Below, in pieces: positions 3,517-40,142 of a DNA stretch of 64,000 nt. The DNA comes from an uncultured Chloroflexia bacterium (lineage in GTDB: Bacteria; Chloroflexota; Anaerolineae; Caldilineales; Caldilineaceae). Each line of letters opens with the position of its first letter. Position 1 is the stretch's first letter. Location: the NCBI GenBank assembly GCA_963735275.1, contig CAVTKJ010000007.1, positions 122,083-186,082 of the forward strand. Reading direction: 5' to 3'. Under the pieces are notes generated by a model that worked only from the letters and a program-made list of their open reading frames with translations, had not been told where the DNA came from and did no database searches. The position numbers were made by a program, and so were the translations under genes.

Positions 3517-3711
3517 CGCGCGCCATACAGGCATTTCGGAATGAATGCAGCGTCTTTCCCTGAGGCACTGCCGCAGTTTGGTGGGCTGCGATCGAGAACC
3601 ATAGGCGCAAAATGGGCAATGCTCAGGCTTCTGCGCTACAATGGACGCGACAACAGCGACCATTGCGCGCAATCCTGCGTGCCGCCAAACCACCCACAAA
3701 GAAACGAGAAG

Positions 3712-4636
3712 ATGGCCATGCGTACCATTCAACTGGGAACCAGTTCACTTCAAGTACCTGTCATCGCCGTTGGCTGCATGCGCCTTGACGGCCTCAGCAA
3801 GCAAGAGGCCCACAACTTCGTGCACGCCTCGATGGACCTCGGCCTGAATTTCTTCGACCATGCCGACATCTACGGCGGGGGCGCCTGCGAGGAGATCTTC
3901 GCCGAAGCCATTGACATGAATGCCACCGTGCGCGAAACGATGATGCTTCAATCCAAGGTCGGCATCCGCAAGACGTCGCACGACTTCTCCAAGGAGCACA
4001 TCCTCAGCGCAACCGACGGCATCCTCAAGCGGCTGCGCACCGATTACATTGACGTCCTGCTGCTCCATCGCGCCGACGCGCTGCTGGAGCCCGAGGAGAT
4101 TGCCGAAGCCTTTGACCAGTTGGAGAGTTCCGGCAAGGTGCGCAATTTCGGCGTCTCCAACCAAACGCCCATGCTCATGGATCTGGTGCGCAGGTACGTC
4201 AAGCAGCCCATTGTCGCCAACCAGCTGCAACTGAGCATCACAAACGCCACAATGATCTCCGCAAGACCTCAACATGAACATCGGGATTGATGGCGCCGTG
4301 GATCGTGACGGCGGCGTGCTCAACTACTGCCGCATCCATGACATCACAGTGCAGCCCTGGTCGCCCTTCCAGTATGGCTTCTTTGAGGGCGTCTTCCTCG
4401 ACAATCCCAAGTTCCCCGAGCTCAACGCCGCAATTGACGAGATTGCGCAGAAGTATGGCGTCTCGAACACAACCATCACGATGGCATGGCTGCTGCGCCA
4501 CCCGGCCAAGATGCAGCCGGTGACGGGCACGATGAACATCGGCCGCCTCACCGATTGCGCCAAGGCAGCCGACGTGAACCTGACGCGCGAGGAGTGGTAC
4601 GCGATCTACCTGGCGGCAGGCAACACGCTGCCGTAG
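3712..4636 (+). CDS. Aldo/keto reductase, YdhF-like; frame broken once near 4263
   Basis: ORFs 3541..4290 and 4274..4636 are two halves of one AKR. Part 1 has LNFFDHADIYGGG, IDVLLLHRAD and KVRNFGVSN. Part 2 has ITVQPWSPF and AWLLRHPAKMQPVTG. Dropping one A at 4263/4264 restores ...NATMISADLNMNIGIDGAV.... Start is ATG 3712 (MAMRTIQLG). Confidence 0.8.
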
Positions 4637-5682: not shown

Positions 5683-5721
5683 CGCAAACACAAAAGAGAA
5701 GGGCCCCGAAGGACCCTTCTC
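5683..5721 (-). terminator. Intrinsic terminator downstream of the decaheme cytochrome gene
   Basis: On the minus strand: GAGAAGGG-T-CC-TTCGG-GG-CCCTTCTC, an 8+2 bp stem with one bulge. It is followed by TTTTGTGTTT and lies 44 nt after the TAG at 5765-5767. Confidence 0.65.
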
Positions 5722-5764
5722 CTCGTCTTGCATCGATTGCCGGGGGAGCCGCTCCCCAGCTGCT

Positions 5765-8059
5765 CTACTGGCCGAAGAGCGACATGATCTGCTCGGTCAC
5801 GCTCTGGAGCATGCCCACAGGGTCATCGCCCGCTTCGACCATGTAGCCACCCTGCTTCATGTGCTGGTTGAGCGAGATGAGCGCACTGGCGTCATCCTCA
5901 TTGATCAACGTCGCGCGGTGACAGCCGCCGCAGGCCTTGGATGCAGGGCCGGTGACCATGGCGGGCACGTCACCAATGCTCCGGACTGTGCCGGTGATGG
6001 TGTCGGAGGCCGAGAGGATGCCGGGCAGTGACATGGCCTGGTCGGGCACGTTGTTCATGCCGGCAACGTGGCATGAGTTGCAGTTGGTAATACCGTGTGT
6101 CGGGTACGTTGTGCCGACGTGATGCTCGTAGTGCAGTGCCTGTACGGGGTCGGCAAAGTCAATGTCGCCGATGTCGAAGGCCTGGAACGAGTGAACGGCG
6201 TGAATGTAGGAATCGAGCGAACGTGACTGCATTTCCAGATGCGATGCGCCGCTCTTGTTGATGTGGCACATGCGGCAGACTGTCAAATTGCCGCCGTAGT
6301 CCGCCGAGTGGAAGGTGGTGGCCAGGGCGTCGTGGCAGTTGTTGCAGCCGTCAACCACATTGCCGATGGGGGCGAAGAAGTCATCCGCAAAGGCATTCGC
6401 GCCGAGGTCAAAGGTGCGTGAAGGTGCGTTGAGCGCCAGGGTGACGCCGTTTGCATCAACCAGTTCCGGCAGAACGCCGATTTCAACACGCTTGACGGTG
6501 CCGTCTGCAAGCAGGTCGGCCCATTGCGACATGTCGGCGGTCACTTCCCAACTGCCGCCCTCAGCCGAGACCGTTGTGAAGCGTGGGTGCTCAGCGCCCA
6601 CCACGTATTCAAGTGCGCGTTGGTCCTTGTTGTCGATGACGCCGTCGCCGTTGTCGTCAGTCAGCCGCTCATGCGCGCCCACGACGAAGTCCTTGGCGTC
6701 CCAGCCATAGAGTCCTACCATGACTGTGGGGGTAATCTGCGCCACGTCGAGGTCAGCAAGCGCTGCGTCCTGCACGGCGCTGAAGCCGACTGTCAGGATA
6801 CTGCCATCCAGCGTGGCGCTGTCAACGCTCACTGTGATGGCGTCGCTATAGCGCAGGCCGTCGCTCGTGTAGATTGCCTTGTCGAAGCCACTGTGGATTG
6901 CGTTCATCCCCGGTGTCTTCGAACCCGTCTCATGGCAGTCGGTGCAGGCATCGACATTTATGTCCACGTTCTCATGCTCGGGGACAGCGGCCATGATGCT
7001 GGTAAGCCCCAGGTTCGTGTTGCCAAGCTCTTCCGAGCCATTCATGGGGTGGCAACTGCGGCAGGTCTCGATGGTGAAGTTCTCATCCGACAGCGCCGTG
7101 TCGAGCTTGCCTTCGTGACAGGTTGCGCAATTGGCCATTGACTGCGGGTACGGGAACTCCATGGCGTGCGACATGTGCACGTCGTTCATGAGAGACGTCG
7201 TGTAGGCCATCTCCTCTTGCTGCTCGGGCGTCAACTCGACTTCGCCGGCAAGATACTGGGCCGCCAGCGCCGGATCTTCGACCAGCAGTTGCCACTCAAA
7301 ATGGCCGCCCTCGACGTTGTCCTGGTGGCAAGCCTTGCACGTCAGGAAATCGGTCGCAGGATCACCGCTCACCTGTGCATAGATGTATCCGTGCTTGAGG
7401 TACGGGTCGGTGTGGCACTTGACGCAGCCGGCGTCATTGGCAGCCGAGACGTAGTCAACACCGCCGCCTGTTTCAAGCAAGCCGGCAAAGGGATACTTGA
7501 CCAGTCGCACACGTGCGGGCAGTGTGCCAACCTGCTCGTCCGCGCCGAAGATGGTGATGAATCCGTCCACCTCGGTCAGATCGGGGATGTCGCCAACGAA
7601 GGTGCTGGTGTTGCCGCCGGCGCCGTCATAGCTCAAATCACCCAGCAGAGAGAGTCGTTCGGCGGGCGGATCGAACTGGAAAGCGCCGTCGCTGTAGGCT
7701 GCAAAGTAAATTGCCAGCGAATCCGCCTTGGCGGCGTTAAAGGGTTCGCCATCCTTGGTCATCTGGAAGGTGACGGTGTGCGTGCCGGTGGGCGCAAAGG
7801 TATAGGCCATGTCGGTGATCTGAATGACCCCATCCTGATACAACTCGTCGTAGCCCGCCTGATGCTCATCACCCGCGTCCTTGTGGCACGTTGCGCACGA
7901 TTCGGGCTGCACGCCGGGAATCATAACGGGCGTCTCCGCCGCGGGCGCCGGGGTATCCTGCGCGAATGCGGTGGCGGGCCCCATAGCGGACAGGAAAATG
8001 AGAGCTGCCGCCAGCACAAGCAGGCCGGTGCAGGCGATGATGATTTTGCGTGACGACAT
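5765..8059 (-). CDS. Secreted decaheme c-type cytochrome (764 aa)
   Basis: ORF 5765..8158; likely start is ATG 8059 (AAGGGGA upstream). Sec signal MSSRKIIIACTGLLVLAAALIFLSAMGPATAFA/QD. Ten CXXCH motifs at residues 55, 212, 241, 311, 333, 372, 572, 595, 660 and 710: CATCH, CVKCH, CKACH, CATCH, CRSCH, CTDCH, CNNCH, CRMCH, CNSCH, CGGCH. Confidence 0.9.
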   Translation of the reverse strand: MSSRKIIIACTGLLVLAAALIFLSAMGPATAFAQDTPAPAAETPVMIPGVQPESCATCHKDAGDEHQAGYDELYQDGVIQITDMAYTFAPTGTHTVTFQMTKDGEPFNAAKADSLAIYFAAYSDGAFQFDPPAERLSLLGDLSYDGAGGNTSTFVGDIPDLTEVDGFITIFGADEQVGTLPARVRLVKYPFAGLLETGGGVDYVSAANDAGCVKCHTDPYLKHGYIYAQVSGDPATDFLTCKACHQDNVEGGHFEWQLLVEDPALAAQYLAGEVELTPEQQEEMAYTTSLMNDVHMSHAMEFPYPQSMANCATCHEGKLDTALSDENFTIETCRSCHPMNGSEELGNTNLGLTSIMAAVPEHENVDINVDACTDCHETGSKTPGMNAIHSGFDKAIYTSDGLRYSDAITVSVDSATLDGSILTVGFSAVQDAALADLDVAQITPTVMVGLYGWDAKDFVVGAHERLTDDNGDGVIDNKDQRALEYVVGAEHPRFTTVSAEGGSWEVTADMSQWADLLADGTVKRVEIGVLPELVDANGVTLALNAPSRTFDLGANAFADDFFAPIGNVVDGCNNCHDALATTFHSADYGGNLTVCRMCHINKSGASHLEMQSRSLDSYIHAVHSFQAFDIGDIDFADPVQALHYEHHVGTTYPTHGITNCNSCHVAGMNNVPDQAMSLPGILSASDTITGTVRSIGDVPAMVTGPASKACGGCHRATLINEDDASALISLNQHMKQGGYMVEAGDDPVGMLQSVTEQIMSLFGQ

Positions 8060-8411
8060 GGCGTTTCCCCTTCTTGAGCAACTGCGATGACTACAATTGA
8101 ATAGTAACAATGACACTGCACAGCGATTACGATGTCTCAACAATAACTCTGGCACCAATCACTTCATTTGCGTGCGGGCTGCTGCACAAGCCGCAGACGC
8201 CGCAACCACTCTCGACATTTCAATCGGGGGGAGAAGCGCCCGACCTGCTGCGGGGATTTTGGAGATCGCTGCGAGGGTACACAAATAGAATCGCGCGCTG
8301 AGAGATCATGACAACATCACATTACCACGTTCAGCGGGCGCGCACATGAGCCAAATTCATCACGCGCGTAATCAAGTTGACCTAAAGTTATGGAGTGGGT
8401 GTCCATTGTCA

Positions 8412-8477
8412 ATAAAGCGAACGCGCATGGCGCAATGGGCAATTGAGTGCCCATTGCGCCATGCGCGTTCGCTTTAT
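8412..8477. repeat. Perfect 29-bp-stem palindrome (8-nt loop) flanked by 11-bp near-direct repeats
   Basis: Left arm ATAAAGCGAACGCGCATGGCGCAATGGGC (8412-8440), loop AATTGAGT, and an exact reverse complement at 8449-8477. Flanks are GTCCATTGTCA (8401-8411) and GTCCATTTACA (8478-8488), matching at 9/11. A second small hairpin, GGTCACG-N7-CGTGACC, lies at 8489-8509. Confidence 0.9.
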
Positions 8478-8533: not shown

Positions 8534-9517
8534 CTACTGGTGGCCGACGATTGCCTGCGGTACGTACGGCTCTTCGAGGTACTGGACTTCGTCCGCTGTG
8601 AGCTTCAGCGCCAGCGCACCCACAGCATCTTCCAGGTGTGGAATCTTCGTGGCGCCGATGATCGGGGCCGTCACAGGCGCCTTCTGCAAGAGCCACGCAA
8701 GCGCAACGTGCGAGCGCGGAACTCCGTGCTTCTCGGCCAGTTCCGCCGCCCGCTCAATCACCTGCTGATTGGCAATCGAAGTTGCATCATACTTGCCCTT
8801 CGACACCGTGTCGGTTTCTGCACGCAACGTACTCTCCGGCGACCAGCTGCGCGCCAGCCGGCCGGCGGCGAGCGGGCTATAGGGAATCACCCCAATCTTT
8901 TCGGCGCGGCAGAGCGGCATCATCTCGCGTTCTTCCTCGCGATAGATCAGGTTCAGATGATTCTGCATGGAGACGAAGCGCGTCCAGCCATGCGTTTCGG
9001 CAACGTGCAGCGCCTTGAGGAACTGCCACGCAAACATGGCGGAGGCGCCGATGTAGCGCACCTTGCCTGCGCGCACGAGGTCATGCAGCGCCTCCATCGT
9101 CTCCTCGATTGGGGTGTTGTAGTCCCAGCGATGGATCTGGTAGAGGTCCACGTAGTCGGTTTGCAGGCGTTTAAGGCTCTTGTCGATCTCGCTCAGAATT
9201 GCCTTGCGCGACAGCCCTTCACCATTGGGGCCATCGGCCATTCTGCCGCGCACCTTGGTGGCGATGACGACCTCGTCGCGCTTGGCGAACTCCTTGAGCG
9301 CGCGCCCCGTGATCTCCTCACTGACACCAATCGAGTAGACATTGGCCGTATCAAAGAAGTTGATCCCCAGGTCAAGGGCTTTCTTGATCACGGGGCGGCT
9401 CTCCTGCTCGTTGAGCACCCATTTGTGCGTCCAGTGCTCCGCATCGCCAAAACCCATACAACCGAGGCAAATGCGCGAGACATCCATGCCGGTATTGCCC
9501 AGTTTCGCGTACTCCAT
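8534..9517 (-). CDS. Aldo/keto reductase family oxidoreductase
   Basis: ORF 8534..9517. Motifs: MEYAKLGNTGMDVSRICLGCMGFG, LGINFFDTANVYS, VVIATKV, DYVDLYQIHRWD, GKVRYIGASAM. Confidence 0.9.
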   Translation of the reverse strand: MEYAKLGNTGMDVSRICLGCMGFGDAEHWTHKWVLNEQESRPVIKKALDLGINFFDTANVYSIGVSEEITGRALKEFAKRDEVVIATKVRGRMADGPNGEGLSRKAILSEIDKSLKRLQTDYVDLYQIHRWDYNTPIEETMEALHDLVRAGKVRYIGASAMFAWQFLKALHVAETHGWTRFVSMQNHLNLIYREEEREMMPLCRAEKIGVIPYSPLAAGRLARSWSPESTLRAETDTVSKGKYDATSIANQQVIERAAELAEKHGVPRSHVALAWLLQKAPVTAPIIGATKIPHLEDAVGALALKLTADEVQYLEEPYVPQAIVGHQ

Positions 9518-9564
9518 CTGCGTCTCCTCGTGCGCTCCACAATGCAGCGCCTGCGATTAGGCTG

Positions 9565-10536
<972 letters not shown>

Positions 10537-10630: not shown

Positions 10631-12847
10631 CTACACCCCGCGGCCCATCCCTGCAATTTCCGCCATCTCGCTCTCCTGCGCCAACGCATGCAACAGCGCA
10701 CGCACGTCGGCAACCGACTCAATCGAGAAGCGCGCCGCCGAGACGTCGCCGCCCACTTTGATGGTCACAGCGTCTTCGGGCATGGCCTTGAAGGTATCCT
10801 CGTCCGTGTGGTCATCGCCCGCCGCAAGCACAAAGTCGTACGCGTCCTCCTCAAGCCACAAGCGCGCCGCGTTTCCCTTGCTGACCTGGTTGCTCTTGAG
10901 CTCGATCACCATGTGTCCCTGCAGAATCTGCAAACCTCGGTCAAAGGCCAGCATGCGCAGTCGGTCCTGCAGCTCAATTGCGCGCTGCTCGCCCAGCCCT
11001 CGTTCCACCTTGCGGTAGTGCCAACTGAGCGAGTAGCTCTTCTCCTCCACGAGCGCGCCCGGCGTACGATCGGCAAACGAGTCAAGAATGGGCAGCAGTT
11101 CGCGCTTCCACGCGTTGCTCAACCCCGGGTGCTTCTGCCACGCGCCCCCCTTGCGCCGCGTCCAGGCGCCGTGCTCGGCAATCAGGTCAATGGGCAACTG
11201 CCCCAGCCATTCGTCAAGCGTCTCGTGCTTGCGGCCGCTGATGATCGCCACGCGGTTCCTTCGGTCGCGCGCCAGTGACTCGAGAAGTGCGAGCAGCGCC
11301 TCGTCCGGCTGCACCTTGAGCGGGTCCACGTTGAAGCCCATGAGCGTGCCGTCGTAGTCAAGGAAGATCATGCGCTTCCGGGCGGCGGCATAGAGAACGC
11401 CAATCGGGCCGAAGCTGGCCGGCGTGAGCTGCTTGGTCAGCATGTCGTGCTGAATCCGCTTGATCTCGTCGAGCCGCTGCATGAAGAGCTTGACCCAGTG
11501 CTGAACGTCAAACTTCCTAACGGTTGCACGCATGAGGCGCATGCGCTCGCGCTGTTCGTCCTCCGGCATCTCGAGCGCCTGGAAGAGTGCATCCGCCAGG
11601 GCCGGCACATCATTCGGGTTGATGAGGATTGCCTCGGTCAACTCCTTGGAGGCGCCCGCCATCTCGCTGAGGATGAGCACCCCTAGTTCGTCCGTGCTGC
11701 TGGCCACATACTCCTTGGAGACCAGGTTCATTCCGTCGCGCAACGGTGTGACGAGGCAGACATCCGCCGCCACATACATGGCCGAGAGCAGTTCGGGGGC
11801 CACGGAGCGGTACATGTAGACAACCGGCTGCCAGCCCAGCGTCTGATGGTTGGCGTTGATCGCGCTCACTGTGCGGTCAATCTCGCGTTTGAGGCGGTTG
11901 TACGCGGGCACGCGGTCGCGCGACGGCACCACCAACATAAGCAACGAAACCTTTTCGCTGTACTCGGGGTGCGCCTCCAGAAAGAGTTCGAAGGCCTGCA
12001 GACGCAGCAGAATCCCCTTGCTGTAGTCCAGGCGATCGACCGAAAAGACCATGCGCGCCTCGCGCACCGCCTGTTTCACCTTCTGGACATTGCGAACAAC
12101 GCCCGTGCGGGTCGTCATCTTGCTGTACTTTCGGAAGTCAATGCTCATGGGAAAGGCATCAACCAAGACGGGCCTGTGGTCCACGTCAAGCTGGTTGAGT
12201 GACGAGGCGAGGCCCAGTACGCGCGTGGCCGTGCTGATGAAGTGGCGCACGTCATCGTAGGTATGAAAGCCCACAAGGTCGGCCCCCAGCACGCCCTTGA
12301 GCAGCGCTTCGCGCCACGGAATCTGCCGGAAGACTTCGTACGAGGGGAAGGGGATGTGGTGAAAGTAGCCGATGCGCACGTCGGACAACTGGGCGCGCAC
12401 GAGCTGTGGCGTCAGCAGCAACTGGTAGTCATGCACCCAGATGGTGTCGCCGGGCTGGGCCACCGCCAGCACGCGCGCGGCGAACTTGCGGTTGACCTCC
12501 ACGTAGGCGTCCCAATACGCCTGCACATAGGTTGCATACGAAGGCACATAGTGGCAGATGGGCCAGAGGATGCCGTTGGAGAAGCCCTCGTAGTATTTCT
12601 CAATCTCGTCCTTGGAAAGGAAGACGGCATCCATCCCCATCGTATCAAGCTGCTGCCGAATTTCCAGCTCCGCAGCCGCTTCCTCAACAAAGGCCCCCGG
12701 CCAGCCGATCCAGATCTGCTCGCCCACCTTGCGGATGGTGCTCAGGCCCGTTGCCAGGCCGCCCGCCGTAGGCTTGAAGCTCACCTGGCCGTCAATCACC
12801 TGCGTCTTCACAGGCAGGCGGTTGGAGACAATGATTGTTTTGTTCAT
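10631..12847 (-). CDS. Bifunctional trehalose-6-phosphate synthase (GT20) / trehalose-6-phosphate phosphatase (HAD) fusion
   Basis: ORF 10631..12958; likely start is ATG 12847 after GGGAGGGA (MNKTIIVSNRLPV). The N-terminal ~470 aa is OtsA-like (IWVHDYQLLL, GFHTYDDVRHF, LRDGMNLVSKEY). The C-terminal ~250 aa is OtsB-like, with MIFLDYDGTLMGF (DxDGT) and VLAAGDDHTDEDTF. Confidence 0.9.
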   Translation of the reverse strand: MNKTIIVSNRLPVKTQVIDGQVSFKPTAGGLATGLSTIRKVGEQIWIGWPGAFVEEAAAELEIRQQLDTMGMDAVFLSKDEIEKYYEGFSNGILWPICHYVPSYATYVQAYWDAYVEVNRKFAARVLAVAQPGDTIWVHDYQLLLTPQLVRAQLSDVRIGYFHHIPFPSYEVFRQIPWREALLKGVLGADLVGFHTYDDVRHFISTATRVLGLASSLNQLDVDHRPVLVDAFPMSIDFRKYSKMTTRTGVVRNVQKVKQAVREARMVFSVDRLDYSKGILLRLQAFELFLEAHPEYSEKVSLLMLVVPSRDRVPAYNRLKREIDRTVSAINANHQTLGWQPVVYMYRSVAPELLSAMYVAADVCLVTPLRDGMNLVSKEYVASSTDELGVLILSEMAGASKELTEAILINPNDVPALADALFQALEMPEDEQRERMRLMRATVRKFDVQHWVKLFMQRLDEIKRIQHDMLTKQLTPASFGPIGVLYAAARKRMIFLDYDGTLMGFNVDPLKVQPDEALLALLESLARDRRNRVAIISGRKHETLDEWLGQLPIDLIAEHGAWTRRKGGAWQKHPGLSNAWKRELLPILDSFADRTPGALVEEKSYSLSWHYRKVERGLGEQRAIELQDRLRMLAFDRGLQILQGHMVIELKSNQVSKGNAARLWLEEDAYDFVLAAGDDHTDEDTFKAMPEDAVTIKVGGDVSAARFSIESVADVRALLHALAQESEMAEIAGMGRGV

Positions 12848-13097
12848 GTGGTTCCCTCCCTGGTCGTTGCGGCGCGCCGGCCCACACATTGCGTCCGGCT
12901 GCAGCGCGGGTGGAGGCAGCTCTTGCGCCGATATTGCCGGCAGCGCGGCAACTTCCACCCATCAAGTCACCCTTTGAGTGTACCAGCGCGCGCCCTAAAA
13001 GCAATCGCCCGGACGCGAAGAGATCGTCCGGGCGGTTGGGGCTTTGCATTTTTCCACTGTGCGGCCGGCCATTGCGTCGGCAGCCGCTGCGCCATTC

Positions 13098-19248: not shown

Positions 19249-20141
19249 ATGAAGCGCAGTTGGCAGTTGTATGCACTGCTGGCGCTGCCGCTTCTGTGGC
19301 TGCTTGTCTTCCAGTACTGGCCGATGTATGGGGCGCAGATTGCCTTTCGCAACTTCCTCCCCGGTGATGCGATCTGGCAGGCAGACTGGGTCGGGCTGAA
19401 GAACTTCCAGCGCTTCTTTCAGTCGCCCATGTTTATGCGGCTGATTACCAACACGCTTGTCGCTCTCGATCTATTCGCTCGTGGTAGGTTTCCCCATTCC
19501 CATCATCTTTGCCCTGAGCCTGAATCAGCTGCGCGTCGGCTACTTCAAGCAATCCGTGCAGATGGTTAGCTATGCTCCCTATTTCATTTCCACGGTCGTG
19601 CTCGTCGGGATGCTGATCCAGTTCCTTAGCCTGCGCACGGGACCATTCAATTTGCTGCTCATGCGGCTCGGACAGGACCCGATCCACTTCATGGGTCTTG
19701 CGAAGCATGTTTCGCTCGATCTATGTCTGGTCGGGCGTGTGGCAGTTTACCGGCTTCAGCACGGTCATCTATCTGGCGGCGCTCTCGACAATCGACCCAG
19801 CATTGCACGAAGCAGCGGTTGTTGATGGTGCAAACCGCATGCAGCGTATCGTCAACATCGACCTGCCCGGCATTATGCCCACCGCAGTTACGCTGTTGAT
19901 TTTGAATATCGGACAGGTTGCCAACATTGGCTTTGAGAAGATTTATCTGATGCAGAATCCTCTCAACACCTCGGTTTCCGAAGTCATCAGCACCTATGTC
20001 TACAAGGTTGGCCTCATTGGCGGCATGACCAATTACTCGTATGCAGCGGCGATCGGCCTCTTCAATTCGCTGATCGGTCTCGTCATGCTGATCGCTGCCA
20101 ACCGGCTTGCGAAGCAGCTCACGGGGAACTCGCTATGGTAA
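19249..20141 (+). CDS. Sugar ABC transporter permease (LplB/YtcP-type); frame broken twice (~19458, ~19705)
   Basis: Three ORFs in frames 1, 2 and 0 (18859..19569, 19457..19825, 19698..20141) concatenate into one permease. The pieces read MKRSWQLYALLALPLLWLLVFQYWPMYG..., then LSIYSLVVGFPIPIIFALSLNQL...YAPYFISTVVLVGML..., then IYVWSGVWQFTGFSTVIYLAALSTIDPALHEAAVVDGA (EAA loop). Confidence 0.8.
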
Positions 20142-23026: not shown

Positions 23027-23086
23027 CTTCAAGGTGCGCAGACAGCCTGTGCTTTGATCGAGAAGTGAGAGTGAAGTTCATCGTCT

Positions 23087-23134
23087 GCATGATGGAACTC
23101 TTCCCGCCTTGGGGCGGGAAGAGTTCCATCATGC
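23087..23134. repeat. Perfect 22-bp-stem hairpin (loop TTGG) between the binding-protein and fucosidase genes
   Basis: GCATGATGGAACTCTTCCCGCC (23087-23108), loop TTGG, then GGCGGGAAGAGTTCCATCATGC (23113-23134), an exact complement. No U-tract follows. Confidence 0.9.
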
Positions 23135-23169
23135 GCCCGGCAATCGCCGCGCCTGAATCGTCAAATGCA

Positions 23170-24477
23170 ATGGAATCTGGAAGCTGTCCAACGGAAACCA
23201 TCAACCAGGAAGATCGCAAGGAGCGTTTTGTGGCAGCCAAGCAAATTTCGGCGAAGGGGCTGGAGCAGTATTACGATAACCGCTTTGGCATGTTTATCCA
23301 TTGGGGTATCTATACGTTTATGGGCTACTCGGAACGCGACTATCTGGCCGAATGGGCCATGCACGGCGAAAGCATCCCCGTTGCCGAGTACGAGAAACTC
23401 GTGCCCCAGTTCAACCCGACCCAATTCGACGCCGACGAGTGGGTGAGCATTGCTGCCGACGCCGGCCAGAAGTACATGATGTTCACAACCCGCCATCATG
23501 ACGGTTTCAGCATGTATGACACGGCGCTGAGCGACTACAAAGTGACGAACACCCCCTTTGGCCGCGACCCCCTTGCCGAGCTTGCCAACGCCTGCGCGCG
23601 CCGCGGCGACATCAAGCTGGGCATGTATTCATCGGTCATGGACTGGCATCACCCCGCCTACCGCTTCCGCGAAGAGAACGGCCTGGCCTGGTCGGACTAT
23701 GTGGATTTTCTGCACGGGCAGGTGCGCGAGCTTTGCACCAACTACGGCGACGTTGCCGGCTTCTGGTTTGATGGCGACTGGCCCAACCACCCCATGGACG
23801 AGACGAATGCATATTTCCTGGGCGGCGGCAGCTTCGAGTACGAGAAGCTCTACGACATGATTCACACGCTGCAGCCTGAGGCCTACATTATGAATAATCG
23901 CCACGACAAGCCACTGCCGGGCGAGGATATTCAGGGCTTTGAGCAGGATCTGCCCGGCGAGAACAGCACCGGCTTCAATGAAACGACGATTTACGATATC
24001 GGGCTTGAAGTCTCTCAGACCATGTGTGACAACTGGGGCTATCACGCGGTGGACGACAATCACAAGTCCACCCACCGCATGCTCTCTGAACTCGTCAAGT
24101 CGGCCAGCATGAACGCAAACTACCTGCTCAATGTAGGCCCCACAGCGGATGGCCTCATCCTGCCAATTCATGTGGAGCGCCTGCGCGAAATGGGTGCGTG
24201 GCTGGACGTCTACGGCGAGTCCATCTACGGCACACGTGCGGGCAAAATTTCAAGCCCGGGCGGCTTCTCCACCAGCAGGGGCAACACGCACTATGTCTTT
24301 GCACCGCGCTACGAGGTCGACCGCATCTATCTCGATTCGCTGCCGGAGAGCGTGATGGAAGTCTCTCTGCTCAAGGATGGCTCCCGGCTGGAAATCAAGA
24401 GACGCCGTGGACGACCTTTCGTCACCGTGCCGGCCGCACTGCGCGACCCGCTGATTACTGTGCTCAAGCTGCAGTAG
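23170..24477 (+). CDS. Alpha-L-fucosidase, GH29 (copy 1)
   Basis: ORF 23065..24477. Motifs: [52 protein letters not shown]. The start is ambiguous: ATG 23170, or GTG 23230 which is preceded by AAGGAG. The ORF portion upstream of 23170 is the hairpin and is not coding. Confidence 0.85.
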
Positions 24478-24607
24478 CTTGCGCAGCGTGTGGACTCCTG
24501 AGCGATATGCACAAGTACACACAAAATGTTACTTCTTCTGGGCTCGGTCTGCTCAATTGTTTCTGTAGGCAGACGGAGTTCGTCAAGGAGTACTCGGCGC
24601 CATGTGA

Positions 24608-25891
24608 TTGGACAGTCAACACACTGAAAGCAAGGAGAGATTTGTGGCAGCCAAACAGATTTCAGCCAAGGGGCTGGAGCAGTTCTTTGACAATCGCTTT
24701 GGGATGTTCATCCATTGGGGGCTCTATTCAATCATGGGGCGCTCGGGCCGCGAAAGCCTGGCCGAATGGGTCATGTATGGCGAAAATATCCCGGTTCCCG
24801 AGTATGAGAAGCTCGTCCCGCAGTTCAACCCCGTCAAGTTCAACGCCGACGAGTGGGTGAGCATTGCCGCCGACGCCGGCCAGAAGTACATGATCTACAC
24901 GAGCCGCCATCATGACGGCTTCAGCATGTATGACACGGCGCTGAGCGACTACAAGGTGACGAACACCCCCTTTGGCCGCGACCCCCTTGCCGAGCTTGCC
25001 AACGCCTGCGCGCGCCGCGGCGACATCAAGCTGGGCATGTATTCATCCGTCATGGACTGGCACCACCCCGCCTATCGTTTCCCCAAGGAGAGCGGCTTGC
25101 CCTGGTCCGATTACCTTGACTTTCTGCACGGGCAGGTGCGCGAGCTCTGCACCAACTACGGCGAGATTGCGGGCATCTGGTTTGACGGTGACTGGCCACA
25201 CCATGTCATCGACGAGAGCAATGCCTACTTCCTCGGCGGCGGCAGCTTCGAGTACGAGAAGCTCTACGACATGATTCACACGCTGCAGCCAGATGCCTAT
25301 GTCCACAACAATCGCCATGAAGAGCCGCTGCCCGGCGAGGACGTCCAGGGCTTTGAGCAGGATCTGCCCGGCGAGAACAGCACCGGCTTCAATGCAACGA
25401 CAATCTACGACATGCCTGTTGAAGTCTGCATGACGATCAACGACAATTGGGGCTTCCATTCGCTCGATGACAACCACAAGTCAACGCGCCGGCTTCTTAC
25501 CAATTTGATCCGTTCGGCCGGCATGAACGCAAATTACCTGCTCAACGTTGGCCCCACCGCGGAAGGAATTATTGTGCCGGCGCATGTTGAGCGCCTGCGC
25601 GAGATGGGTGAATGGCTGCGCGTCAATGGCGAGGCGATCTACGGCGCGCGCGCCGGCGCAATTGCTTCTCCTGGTGGCGTCTCCACAAGCAAAGGCGACA
25701 CGCACTATGTGCATGCGCTCCAGTACGACAGTGACCGCGTCTACTTCGAGTCACTGCCCGAGAGTGTTCACGAGGCAAGCCTGCTTGCCAATGGTGAGCC
25801 TCTCGAACTGAAGGTTTCCAAGGGGCGGCCCTTCGTGACCGTGCCGGCAGAGATGCGCGATCAGTATGCAACGGTGATTAAGCTGCAGTAG
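24608..25891 (+). CDS. Alpha-L-fucosidase, GH29 (copy 2, tandem paralogue)
   Basis: ORF 24608..25891 with a TTG start; the alternative is GTG 24644 after AAGGAG. Collinear with copy 1 and mostly identical by eye. From the GTG, both copies are exactly 1248 nt. Confidence 0.85.
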
Positions 25892-38897: not shown

Positions 38898-39877
38898 ATG
38901 AAAGTACTGGTCACTGGCGGTGCAGGCTATATCGGTTCCATTGTGGTGGAGGAACTTGTCGCGGCAGGCGAGGAGGTCGTCGTCTTCGATAACCTCTACC
39001 AAGGGCACCGCGCGGCTGTACACCCGGACGCCATCTTTGTGGAGGGGGACCTGCACAACCGTGCGGCAATTGACACCGCGTTGGCGGCGCATCGGCCGGA
39101 TGCAATCATGCACTTCGCCTCCTACACACTTGTCGGTGAATCCATGGAGCAGCCGCTCAAGTATGTGGGCGACAATGTGCTCTGCGGCATCAATCTCTTT
39201 GGCAGCGCGGTGGAAAACGGCGTGCGGCGGGTGATTGTCTCGTCGACGGCCAACCTCTTCGACGATCCGGAGCGCATGCCGATTGACGAGGATGAGCGCA
39301 TTGTACCCGGCAGCCCCTACGGCGAATCCAAGTACATGCTTGAGCGCATCCTCTACTGGCTTGACCGCACCGACAAGCTTCATTACGGTGCGCTGCGCTA
39401 CTTCAACGCCGCCGGCGCGAGCCCGACGCCGCGGCGAGGACCATGCGCCGGAGATGCACATCATTCCCCTTGTCCTGCAGGTGGCCATGGGCCAGCGCAA
39501 GTCGATCAAGATCTTTGGCGACGACTACCCGACGCGCGACGGCACCTGCGTGCGCGACTACATCCACGTGCTGGACCTGGCGCAGGCGCACATTCTTGCC
39601 CTGCGCGCGCTCGATGCGGGCAGCCGCACCTACAACCTGGGCAACGGCGAAGGCTTCACCGTGCGCGAGGTTATCGAGATGGCGCGTGAGATTACCGGTC
39701 ACCCGATTCCCGCCGAAGTTGTGGCGCGCCGCCCTGGTGACCCGGCAATCCTCATTGCCAGCAGCGACAAGATTCGCCGCGAACTGGGCTGGACGCCCCA
39801 GCTACGCCGACCTGCGCTCGATTTTGGAGAGCGCGTGGATCTGGCACTCGACCCACCCGGACGGCTACGGCGCGTAG
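38898..39877 (+). CDS. galE: UDP-glucose 4-epimerase; frame broken near 39428 and 39801
   Basis: [25 protein letters not shown] (YxxxK) and RYFNAAGA are in ORF 38898..39689. [14 protein letters not shown]...[14 protein letters not shown]...RRPGDPA is in ORF 39235..40101. [22 protein letters not shown] is in ORF 39443..39877. Confidence 0.85.
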
Positions 39878-39966
39878 AGGCGTGGGTCGAGGCTGGATGC
39901 GCAGCGGTTTGTCAGCAAGGTGCGCTACAGCACCGAATCATCCCAATGTCAGACCGGCACGAGAAG

Positions 39967-40093
39967 AACATCTCAACCCAAAGCCGAAGAGAGAGCAAAG
40001 AAACGCAAAGGACTGCAACGAATCGACTCATTCCTGGCAGTTGCTTTTCCTTTGCGTTTCTTTGCGTCCTCCGCGACTTTGCGTTGAGATGTT
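39967..40093. repeat. Family A element, copy e (127 bp)
   Basis: AACATCTCAACCCAAAGCCGAAGAGAG...CCTCCGCGACTTTGCGTTGAGATGTT. Opposite orientation to copies c and d, judged from the asymmetric outer flanks. Confidence 0.9.
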
Positions 40094-40142
40094 CGCAGTA
40101 AATGTGGATGCCATACCGGTTTCAGTCTAGAAAGCCCGCTTT

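Follow-up and report, generated by a model that had tools for sequence, protein, structure and literature searches.

The stretch analysed here (the window) comprises 64,000 nucleotides of contig CAVTKJ010000007.1, positions 122,083 to 186,082, from an uncultured Chloroflexia bacterium of the Caldilineaceae (GenBank assembly GCA_963735275.1). Close to one of its ends lies a gene for a decahaem c-type cytochrome, a protein that almost certainly adopts the fold of MtrC, with its haems in a rearranged order. The preferred reading, to which a probability of roughly 0.6 is attached, is that of an independently transcribed, Sec-exported and permuted member of the MtrC family that moves electrons to acceptors beyond the membrane. 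MtrC-type cytochromes are textbook terminal reductases, understood only within the outer-membrane MtrCAB complexes of Proteobacteria. In the clade described below, the fold stands alone: it is strongly conserved across lineages, its haem order is rearranged, and its anchor is exchanged lineage by lineage.

Fold and haem order of the cytochrome

The gene and its parts, as positions in the window with the strand in brackets, are the following:

5765..8059 (-): gene of the decahaem c-type cytochrome, with 764 aa encoded ahead of the stop codon at 5765-5767; from translation, motif count and full-length alignment to more than 120 homologues
7961..8059 (-): predicted signal peptide, residues 1-33, comprising MSSRK, a hydrophobic helix and AFA/QD (cleavage at the slash); read from the sequence
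7829..7912 (-): N-terminal haem module, residues 50-77 (PESCATCHKDAGDEHQAGYDELYQDGVIQ), assigned as a relocated MtrC haem-5/10-type module; from conservation, model confidence, and profile and hidden Markov model (HMM) matches
7460..7828 (-): domain I, residues 78-200, a predicted haem-free beta barrel; from modelled strands of confidence 93-98 and Foldseek matches to MtrC, MtrF and OmcA
6875..7459 (-): domain II, residues 201-395, CXXCH at 212, 241, 311, 333 and 372, equivalent to MtrC haems 1-5; from PF22113, cytochrome c7/c3 models and alignment to MtrF haems 1-4 and 8-10
6374..6874 (-): domain III, residues 396-562, a predicted haem-free beta domain without Cys and with the motif HERLTDDNGDGVID; from model confidence of 92-98, Cys positions and conservation
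5768..6373 (-): domain IV, residues 563-764, CXXCH at 572, 595, 660 and 710, equivalent to MtrC haems 6-9; from PF22113 (best stretch 570-737) and alignment to MtrF haems 6 and 7

A scripted motif count of the 764-aa product finds ten CXXCH motifs at exactly the residues given by an earlier sequence-only reading of this DNA (55; 212, 241, 311, 333, 372; 572, 595, 660, 710). These motifs hold 20 of the 21 Cys residues, the remaining one (C10) being in the signal peptide. All ten are invariant in 24 close homologues; in an 86-sequence alignment of the family nine are invariant, and the N-terminal motif is conserved in at least 90% of members. Because the motifs are conserved across homologues, the layout is not a product of chance. 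The two haem-free stretches described earlier are also real (residues 59-212 and 376-572). The N-terminus is consistent with the cleavable Sec signal that had been predicted, both in its sequence pattern and in the recurrence of A-x-A-Q-[DE] among Caldilineaceae relatives, and it is modelled as a helix (residues 2-24) followed by a low-confidence linker.

The Pfam family PF22113, which covers domains II and IV of MtrC and MtrF, is matched at 89.9 bits, well above its cutoff of 30. The NCBIfam model TIGR03507 (OmcA/MtrC decahaem) is matched over residues 209-743 with an E-value of 7e-33, but at 114 bits it stays under the trusted cutoff of 209.3. Narrow sequence searches of the PDB, with the single protein (phmmer) or a 24-sequence profile (hmmsearch), returned no MtrC-family chain. 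The 86-sequence family profile returned MtrF (3pmq, E 1.4e-14) and the MtrC chain of the MtrCAB complex (6r2q_C, E 9e-9).

A first AlphaFold2 (AF2) model, built on the 24 close homologues, had a mean predicted local distance difference test (pLDDT) score of 49.9 and unusable haem domains, with the haem-free stretches already present as two confident beta domains. The second model, built on the 86-sequence alignment, reached a mean pLDDT of 92.5 and a predicted template modelling (TM) score of 0.88, falling below a pLDDT of 50 only in the linker at residues 26-37. Its four domains follow one another as split beta barrel I, haem domain II, beta barrel III and haem domain IV. Counted at E <= 1e-3, its Foldseek matches in the PDB number 12, all of them Shewanella MtrC, MtrF, OmcA or UndA; the best is 6qyc_A (E 3.1e-17, target-normalised TM-score 0.58), and TM-scores reach 0.59 overall at 13-15% identity. 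The first model gave the same outcome. PF22113, the family profile, AF2 and Foldseek therefore agree on the MtrC/OmcA-like alternation of beta and haem segments that had been proposed from the sequence, and the haem-free segments, for which disorder had been named as a counter-indication, are confidently predicted to be folded beta domains.

The same searches bear on a quite different explanation, in which the protein is a catalytic multihaem enzyme of the nitrite, hydroxylamine, sulfite or peroxide type and its likeness to MtrC is superficial. A marginal and non-significant phmmer match to a hydroxylamine oxidoreductase-like protein (E 0.063) speaks for it. Enzymes of this kind are absent from the Foldseek matches at the threshold above and from the HMM matches, no Pfam or NCBIfam enzyme family is hit, and there is no CXXCK or other variant motif. 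In addition, at least eleven non-motif His residues are conserved family-wide (66, 223, 295, 298, 362, 389, 584, 607, 620, 623 and 733) and available as distal ligands to the ten haems, enough for a predicted bis-His ligation of all of them. An enzymatic identity is extremely improbable, and NrfA, the octahaem nitrite and tetrathionate reductases and hydroxylamine oxidoreductase were each rejected for want of a structural or HMM match and of a variant motif.

The canonical order of ten haems, five in domain II and five in domain IV, is replaced here by 1 + 5 + 4. This grouping, recorded in the sequence-only reading, is right along the sequence; structurally, however, it resolves into two repeats of one haem, a beta barrel and four haems. 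In the alignment of the family profile to MtrF and MtrC, haems 1-4 and 6-9 correspond motif by motif: motifs 572 and 595 match the haem 6/7 pair directly, motifs 212 and 241 match the haem 1/2 pair through the internal repeat, and motifs 311 and 333 align to haems 3/4 and 8/9. Motif 372 aligns to haem 10 by repeat homology, while the N-terminal module (PESCxxCH...HQ) and barrel I align to haem 5 and barrel III (MtrF 291-407, MtrC 296-499). Compared by eye, QHMKQGGYMV follows motif 710 where NHMRQQGAVF follows MtrF haem 9. The two halves of the cytochrome are homologous to each other (hhalign probability 98.2%, E 3.9e-14, with haems 3 and 8 mis-registered).

Three members of the family (P0168, P0184 and P0192) have no N-terminal motif; behind the C-terminal helix they have ExCxxCHxxxGxxHQxx[FY]N instead. 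An HMM built from the N-terminal module with these three left out scores their C-termini at 30-32 bits (independent E-value about 1e-9), against 6 bits or less for their other CXXCH sites and 3.3 bits or less for reversed sequences. Among full-length members the module is N-terminal in 171 and C-terminal in 3; in six representatives the N-terminus holds three haems and the whole protein 12. The chain can thus be written as haem, barrel and four haems, twice over, compared with barrel and five haems, twice over, in Shewanella; the two are very probably related by circular permutation.

No segment of the protein is better conserved than the N-terminal module, which keeps 73% identity among close homologues and 45% among distant ones and is modelled at a pLDDT of about 95; these values argue that it is packed on the body and does not dangle from it. 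MtrF and MtrC have a pseudo-twofold symmetry in which haem 5 runs directly into barrel III. By this symmetry the N-terminal module, which runs into barrel I, would be expected at the haem-10 site. The lone N-terminal haem is accordingly taken as a relocated MtrC-type module and not as an extra one, a point absent from the sequence-only reading. A suggestion from motif spacing that domain IV has no equivalent of haem 9 was overturned by the MtrF alignment and the C-terminal variants: the missing one is haem 10, and domain IV closes with a C-terminal helix without that motif.

Set against its structural relatives, the cytochrome shares with MtrC (6QYC, 4LM8; complex 6R2Q) and MtrF (3PMQ) the barrel/haem/barrel/haem fold (Foldseek E 3e-17 to 2e-14, TM-score 0.53-0.59) and the count of ten CXXCH motifs. 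It differs from them in its low sequence identity, in the module at haem 10, which is C-terminal there and N-terminal here, in the CX8C disulfide of domain III, which it does not have, and in its cleavable Sec signal where they have a lipobox. No mtrA or mtrB occurs in the 64-kb window, and the host lineage is one without a proven outer membrane. OmcA (4LMH) and UndA (3UCP) belong to the same fold family (E 6e-14 and 3e-14, TM-score 0.43-0.53). In Shewanella they are surface cytochromes encoded in addition to the porin complex, without being components of it, and in this they are comparable to the cytochrome of the window; they depend on MtrAB-type conduits and on type II secretion. Both are lipoproteins with the domain-III disulfide, in contrast to the present protein, and the eleventh haem of UndA comes from an insertion in domain IV and not from an N-terminal module. 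The domain-III disulfide (CX8-15C) of Shewanella MtrC, OmcA, MtrF and UndA gates flavin binding. Within beta domain III of the cytochrome, residues 463-476 (H-E-R-L-x-D-D-N-G-D-G-x-I-D, nt about 6632-6673) are invariant in close homologues and partly kept in distant members; the motif looks like a Ca2+-binding loop.

Distribution and anchoring of the clade

A search of 5.8 billion proteins gave 1170 homologues, the best 120 of which are all full length, share 61-82% identity with the cytochrome and come from metagenome-assembled genomes (MAGs) of Caldilineaceae and Anaerolineae. Many close homologues bear the IMG label of OmcA/MtrC family decaheme c-type cytochrome. In a scan of 185,579 species, with one genome per species, at least 180 species genomes carry a relative, mostly Anaerolineae and Caldilineae; among the best 80 of 180 carriers, which share 52-85% identity, 64 are Chloroflexota, with Caldilineaceae MAGs at the top (84-85%). 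A HMMER search of 1.84 billion cluster representatives returned 418 clusters at E <= 1e-3, including 184 at E <= 1e-30. The gene thus belongs to a large, highly conserved and Chloroflexota-centred clade, already named automatically by IMG, which the sequence-only reading had missed. Its members are far more conserved among themselves than the Shewanella paralogues are. For one Anaerolineae genome, Hug et al. list "a decaheme" (PMC3971608).

Some carriers belong instead to the Planctomycetota, Bathyarchaeia and Desulfuromonadales. Among relatives from cultured organisms, the closest one found is the uncharacterised WP_155005950.1 of Pelobacter seleniigenes (36% identity), which, like proteins from Desulfuromonadales MAGs (36-40%), has the permuted 1 + 5 + 4 order and matches PF22113. 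Unlike the cytochrome of the window, it is a lipoprotein from a diderm lineage that respires metals and selenate, and its gene lies near another multihaem gene and unannotated genes. On a 5-Mb Desulfuromonadales contig (L084, 13051-16010), a permuted MtrC-like lipoprotein (P0239) is encoded beside a 380-aa multihaem protein and proteins of 156 and 428 aa without a Pfam match; this cluster, which adjoins nif genes, could be a porin-cytochrome module. The closest homologue in the genome collection (L081, 10001-12290; 85% identity, from a Microflora Danica MAG) is split into two open reading frames (ORFs) of 434 and 353 aa, probably by a frameshift in the long-read assembly and not by a real truncation.

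The means of attachment vary within the clade. A lipobox is present in 69 of 176 full-length members, as a rule ahead of 20-60 residues made up of collagen-like GP(A/E/Q) triplets; the lipobox and Gly-rich linker of this third of the clade align with the N-termini of MtrC and MtrF. The other 107 have no lipobox, and those inspected carry A-x-A-type signal peptides, as does the window protein (AFA/QD). Runs of 8-25 collagen-like G-P-x triplets (Pfam Collagen) between a lipid or transmembrane anchor and the first haem module were seen in P0025, P0036, P0057, P0063, P0091 and others, and at loci L044, L064, L067, L078 and L063; smaller multihaem proteins encoded nearby also contain them (L001, 12716-13777; L082, 12842-15142). 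To judge by their sequence, such linkers could serve as an extended stalk through the wall or as a trimerisation element.

Homologues of 52-64% identity were also found on contigs binned to other phyla, namely Planctomycetota (L026, L029, L034, L042, L047, L050) and Bathyarchaeia (L044, L064, L067, L078), together with L045, L063, L065 and L082. Copies binned to the Planctomycetota share a common "SSVFAQ" signal, those binned to the Bathyarchaeia have a transmembrane helix and a collagen-like linker, and many Anaerolineae copies have a lipobox and a collagen-like linker. Since the type of anchor is consistent within each lineage, this distribution argues for real horizontal spread rather than mis-binning, and suggests that the gene has been transferred between phyla and between domains. 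The N-termini as a whole point to a common design of an anchor or signal, a flexible linker, the haem module and the MtrC body.

Proposed electron transfer beyond the cytoplasmic membrane

Members of the clade carry a signal peptide, a lipobox, or a transmembrane anchor and linker ahead of the haem module, and for this reason the cytochrome is, with high probability, an extracytoplasmic electron wire. After export and haem attachment, the protein would lie beyond the cytoplasmic membrane, either inside a multilayered envelope lacking an outer membrane or on the surface of that envelope, with its ten haems forming an MtrC-type "staggered cross". Electrons would enter from membrane quinol-oxidising complexes encoded elsewhere, a source hinted at by the alternative complex III (ACIII), Rieske/cytochrome b or NapC/NirT-type cytochromes that adjoin the gene in a minority of relatives. 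They would leave, possibly reversibly, to acceptors beyond the membrane such as metal oxides, humics, partner cells or electrodes. An MtrAB-type porin partner would not be needed, because there would be no outer membrane to cross.

OcwA of Thermincola potens, whose fold is NrfA/octahaem-like, and ARMA_0580 of Ardenticatena maritima, a seven-haem protein of another family, are unrelated to the cytochrome in fold, and OcwA is not among its Foldseek matches at E <= 1e-3. The role proposed for them is nevertheless the same, that of a multihaem protein outside the membrane in cells without an outer membrane (PMC5808234). A. maritima, the only cultured member of the Chloroflexota active in extracellular electron transfer, relies on this different protein (PMC5808234). 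Chloroflexota have no BAM or lipopolysaccharide genes and no proven outer membrane (PMC13319060). Baker et al. did not find mtrCAB in Gram-positives and archaea, organisms without an outer membrane, where its use would require re-adaptation (PMC8805035). Given these two reports and the Caldilineaceae and Anaerolineae origin of the closest relatives, it is plausible that the host lineage does without the MtrAB scaffold, as the sequence-only reading had supposed. FeGenie calls iron reduction from mtrCAB-type operons (PMC7005843), and a solitary mtrC therefore goes unreported.

That reading had also described the gene as an orphan, which is right and typical of the clade: within 10 kb of the gene, a second multihaem ORF is missing from about 60 of 80 related loci. 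All-against-all clustering of the ORFs of 83 loci showed no conserved neighbour, only frame-shadow ORFs and a generic ABC ATPase in 12 loci, and the idea of a fixed partner gene next to the cytochrome was dropped. Rieske and cytochrome b genes are present in 5 loci, a NapC/NirT-type membrane multihaem in 7, and additional proteins of 10-15 haems at several. In a closed Anaerolineales genome (CP070639.1; L001, 1-9364), the decahaem gene comes directly after a complete ACIII-like operon. This operon encodes a pentahaem ActA-like protein, a molybdopterin subunit, an Fe-S subunit, an NrfD-like ActC, ActD and monohaem cytochromes, and is accompanied by further multihaem genes; two six-haem proteins with collagen-like linkers are encoded downstream of the decahaem gene.

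A location at the cell surface, with electrons passing to extracellular acceptors, would make the cytochrome a terminal component of extracellular electron transfer, a role whose chances are put slightly below even. Several observations weigh against it and against the preferred reading as a whole. The window copy has neither a lipobox nor a collagen-like linker, so the protein may be soluble after cleavage and not tethered. The domain-III disulfide is absent, there being no Cys outside the CXXCH motifs except C10, and the TIGR03507 score is below the trusted cutoff, as noted above. Identities of 52-85% across orders and phyla are unlike those of the fast-evolving surface cytochromes of Shewanella, and hint that the protein has a specific conserved partner and is not a generalist reducer of minerals. 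To judge by the sources of the MAGs, many host lineages are aerobic or facultative heterotrophs of soil and activated sludge. No gene in the 64-kb window ties the cytochrome to respiration, and no experimental or comparative study of the clade was found in the literature.

The high conservation, the missing tether and disulfide, and the aerobic or facultative hosts keep alive another explanation, in which the protein is an internal carrier or capacitor of the envelope, storing electrons or shuttling them between membrane complexes (ACIII or one of bc type) on one side and terminal oxidases or reductases on the other, and is not a terminal reductase of external solids. The cleavable signal of the window copy, which leaves it without a lipid anchor, would suit such a carrier; so would fixed protein partners, which the very high conservation suggests, and the position of the gene beside ACIII and mono- and dihaem cytochromes in CP070639 and with Rieske/cytochrome b in the 5 loci. 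All structural relatives of known function are, however, cell-surface terminal reductases, the long collagen-like linkers behind lipid or transmembrane anchors in a third of members suggest projection outward, and a ten-haem protein of 70-80 kDa would be costly as a simple shuttle. An internal carrier is considered unlikely on this evidence; if it were the true role, the clade would still offer a clean and well-defined family for the study of multihaem evolution.

The wire could instead run mainly inward and supply the respiratory chain with electrons drawn from Fe(II), Mn(II), reduced humics or a partner cell. MtrC-type wires are reversible in principle, as the Mtr and Mto systems illustrate, and the hosts are frequent at oxic-anoxic interfaces. 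Ardenticatena gives both anodic and cathodic currents, though through its own seven-haem protein (PMC5808234). Sequence alone does not reveal which way the electrons flow. The surroundings of the gene contain neither Cyc2 nor MtoAB nor any other oxidation gene, and the FeGenie authors remark that known iron oxidisers do not encode MtrC (PMC7005843). Inward flow as the main role is quite improbable.

Returning to the preferred reading of a wire to acceptors beyond the membrane, a broader and more tentative proposal can be made for the clade. The permuted decahaem would give cells without an outer membrane an electron outlet, or inlet, that needs no porin. A signal peptide, lipid anchor or transmembrane helix would release it from the cytoplasmic membrane or tether it there, often on a collagen-like stalk, perhaps trimeric, that might span the wall, and the gene would have spread horizontally among Chloroflexota, Planctomycetota, Bathyarchaeia and Desulfuromonadales. 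Were this true, the abundant filamentous Anaerolineae and Caldilineae of soil, sediment and activated sludge would hold an overlooked and conserved route of extracellular electron transfer. If electrons do cross the envelope, these environmental and wastewater filaments would gain a role in the redox cycling of iron, manganese and humics and in bioelectrochemical systems, nature would have supplied an experiment on the tolerance of a ten-haem wire to circular permutation, and the gene-neighbourhood rules for calling iron reducers would need revising.

Transcription unit and other genes of the window

The features around the coding sequence of the cytochrome are the following:

5693..5724 (-): intrinsic terminator of the cytochrome gene, with a GC-rich 14-bp stem and a U tract
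8067..8073 (-): ribosome-binding site (RBS) GAAGGGG, 7 nt 5' of the ATG; read from the sequence
8294..8362 (-): conserved block of about 70 nt, upstream of the ATG by about 235-300 nt; putative promoter or operator
8421..8468 (strand not assigned): hairpin terminator of the upstream aldo/keto reductase gene, with a 20-bp stem

The start codon of the cytochrome gene is the ATG at 8059, and the region of the RBS and ATG (AAGAAGGGGAAAC) shows no variation in four related genomes. A longer ORF started by TTG (to 8158) was rejected as unsupported, since homologues begin at the same Met. The downstream hairpin, whose region has a folding free energy (dG) of -39.6 kcal/mol and a z of -2.9, bears out the strong terminator attributed to the gene in the sequence-only reading. 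Together with the separate terminator of the aldo/keto reductase gene upstream, which isolates the transcription unit, it agrees with the description of the gene as monocistronic. The block at 8294..8362 is near-invariant in four Caldilineaceae genomes (the window, L081, L003 and L004), in which the flanking intergenic DNA has diverged, and contains repeated GTGATG and TGATAAC-like elements; it might act as promoter or operator, in which case the 5' leader would be long. A promoter scan found no sigma-70 consensus upstream of the gene, and Rfam and tRNA scans of the window gave no match, the block included (Rfam). The GC content of the gene (0.609) equals that of the window (0.611) closely enough that there is no sign of recent import.

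The neighbours of the gene are the aldo/keto reductases and the PAS-LuxR regulator named in the sequence-only reading, and further ones are a GFO/IDH/MocA oxidoreductase, an OtsA-OtsB fusion, a CAAX protease and a hybrid histidine kinase. That reading had seen no second cytochrome, porin-like, maturation or respiratory gene nearby, a statement that extends to the entire 64 kb: in the 40 window ORFs scanned with Pfam, glycoside hydrolases, transporters, RpoD and GatB were recognised but no cytochrome, cytochrome-maturation or respiratory gene, and CXXCH occurs in just one further ORF of the window, a methyltransferase, which has it once.

One aldo/keto reductase gene is present as two overlapping ORFs (3541-4290 (+) and 4274-4636 (+), Pfam profile positions 2-167 and 174-286), which indicates a frameshift in a pseudogene or an assembly indel at 3541-4636. 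The ORF pair 38920-39234 and 39235-40101 (an epimerase without its N-terminus) and the ORF at 19698-20141 (a partial permease) look like similar cases, and there may be several frameshifts in the window. Two full-length aldo/keto reductases form a tandem pair at 8534-10536 (-), and two alpha-L-fucosidases form another at 23065-25891 (+), beside GH2 and GH130 genes; these duplicated genes fit a polysaccharide-degrading heterotroph. The fused trehalose-6-phosphate synthase/phosphatase at 10631-12958 (-) is a protein of 775 aa that combines GT20 and Trehalose_PPase domains.

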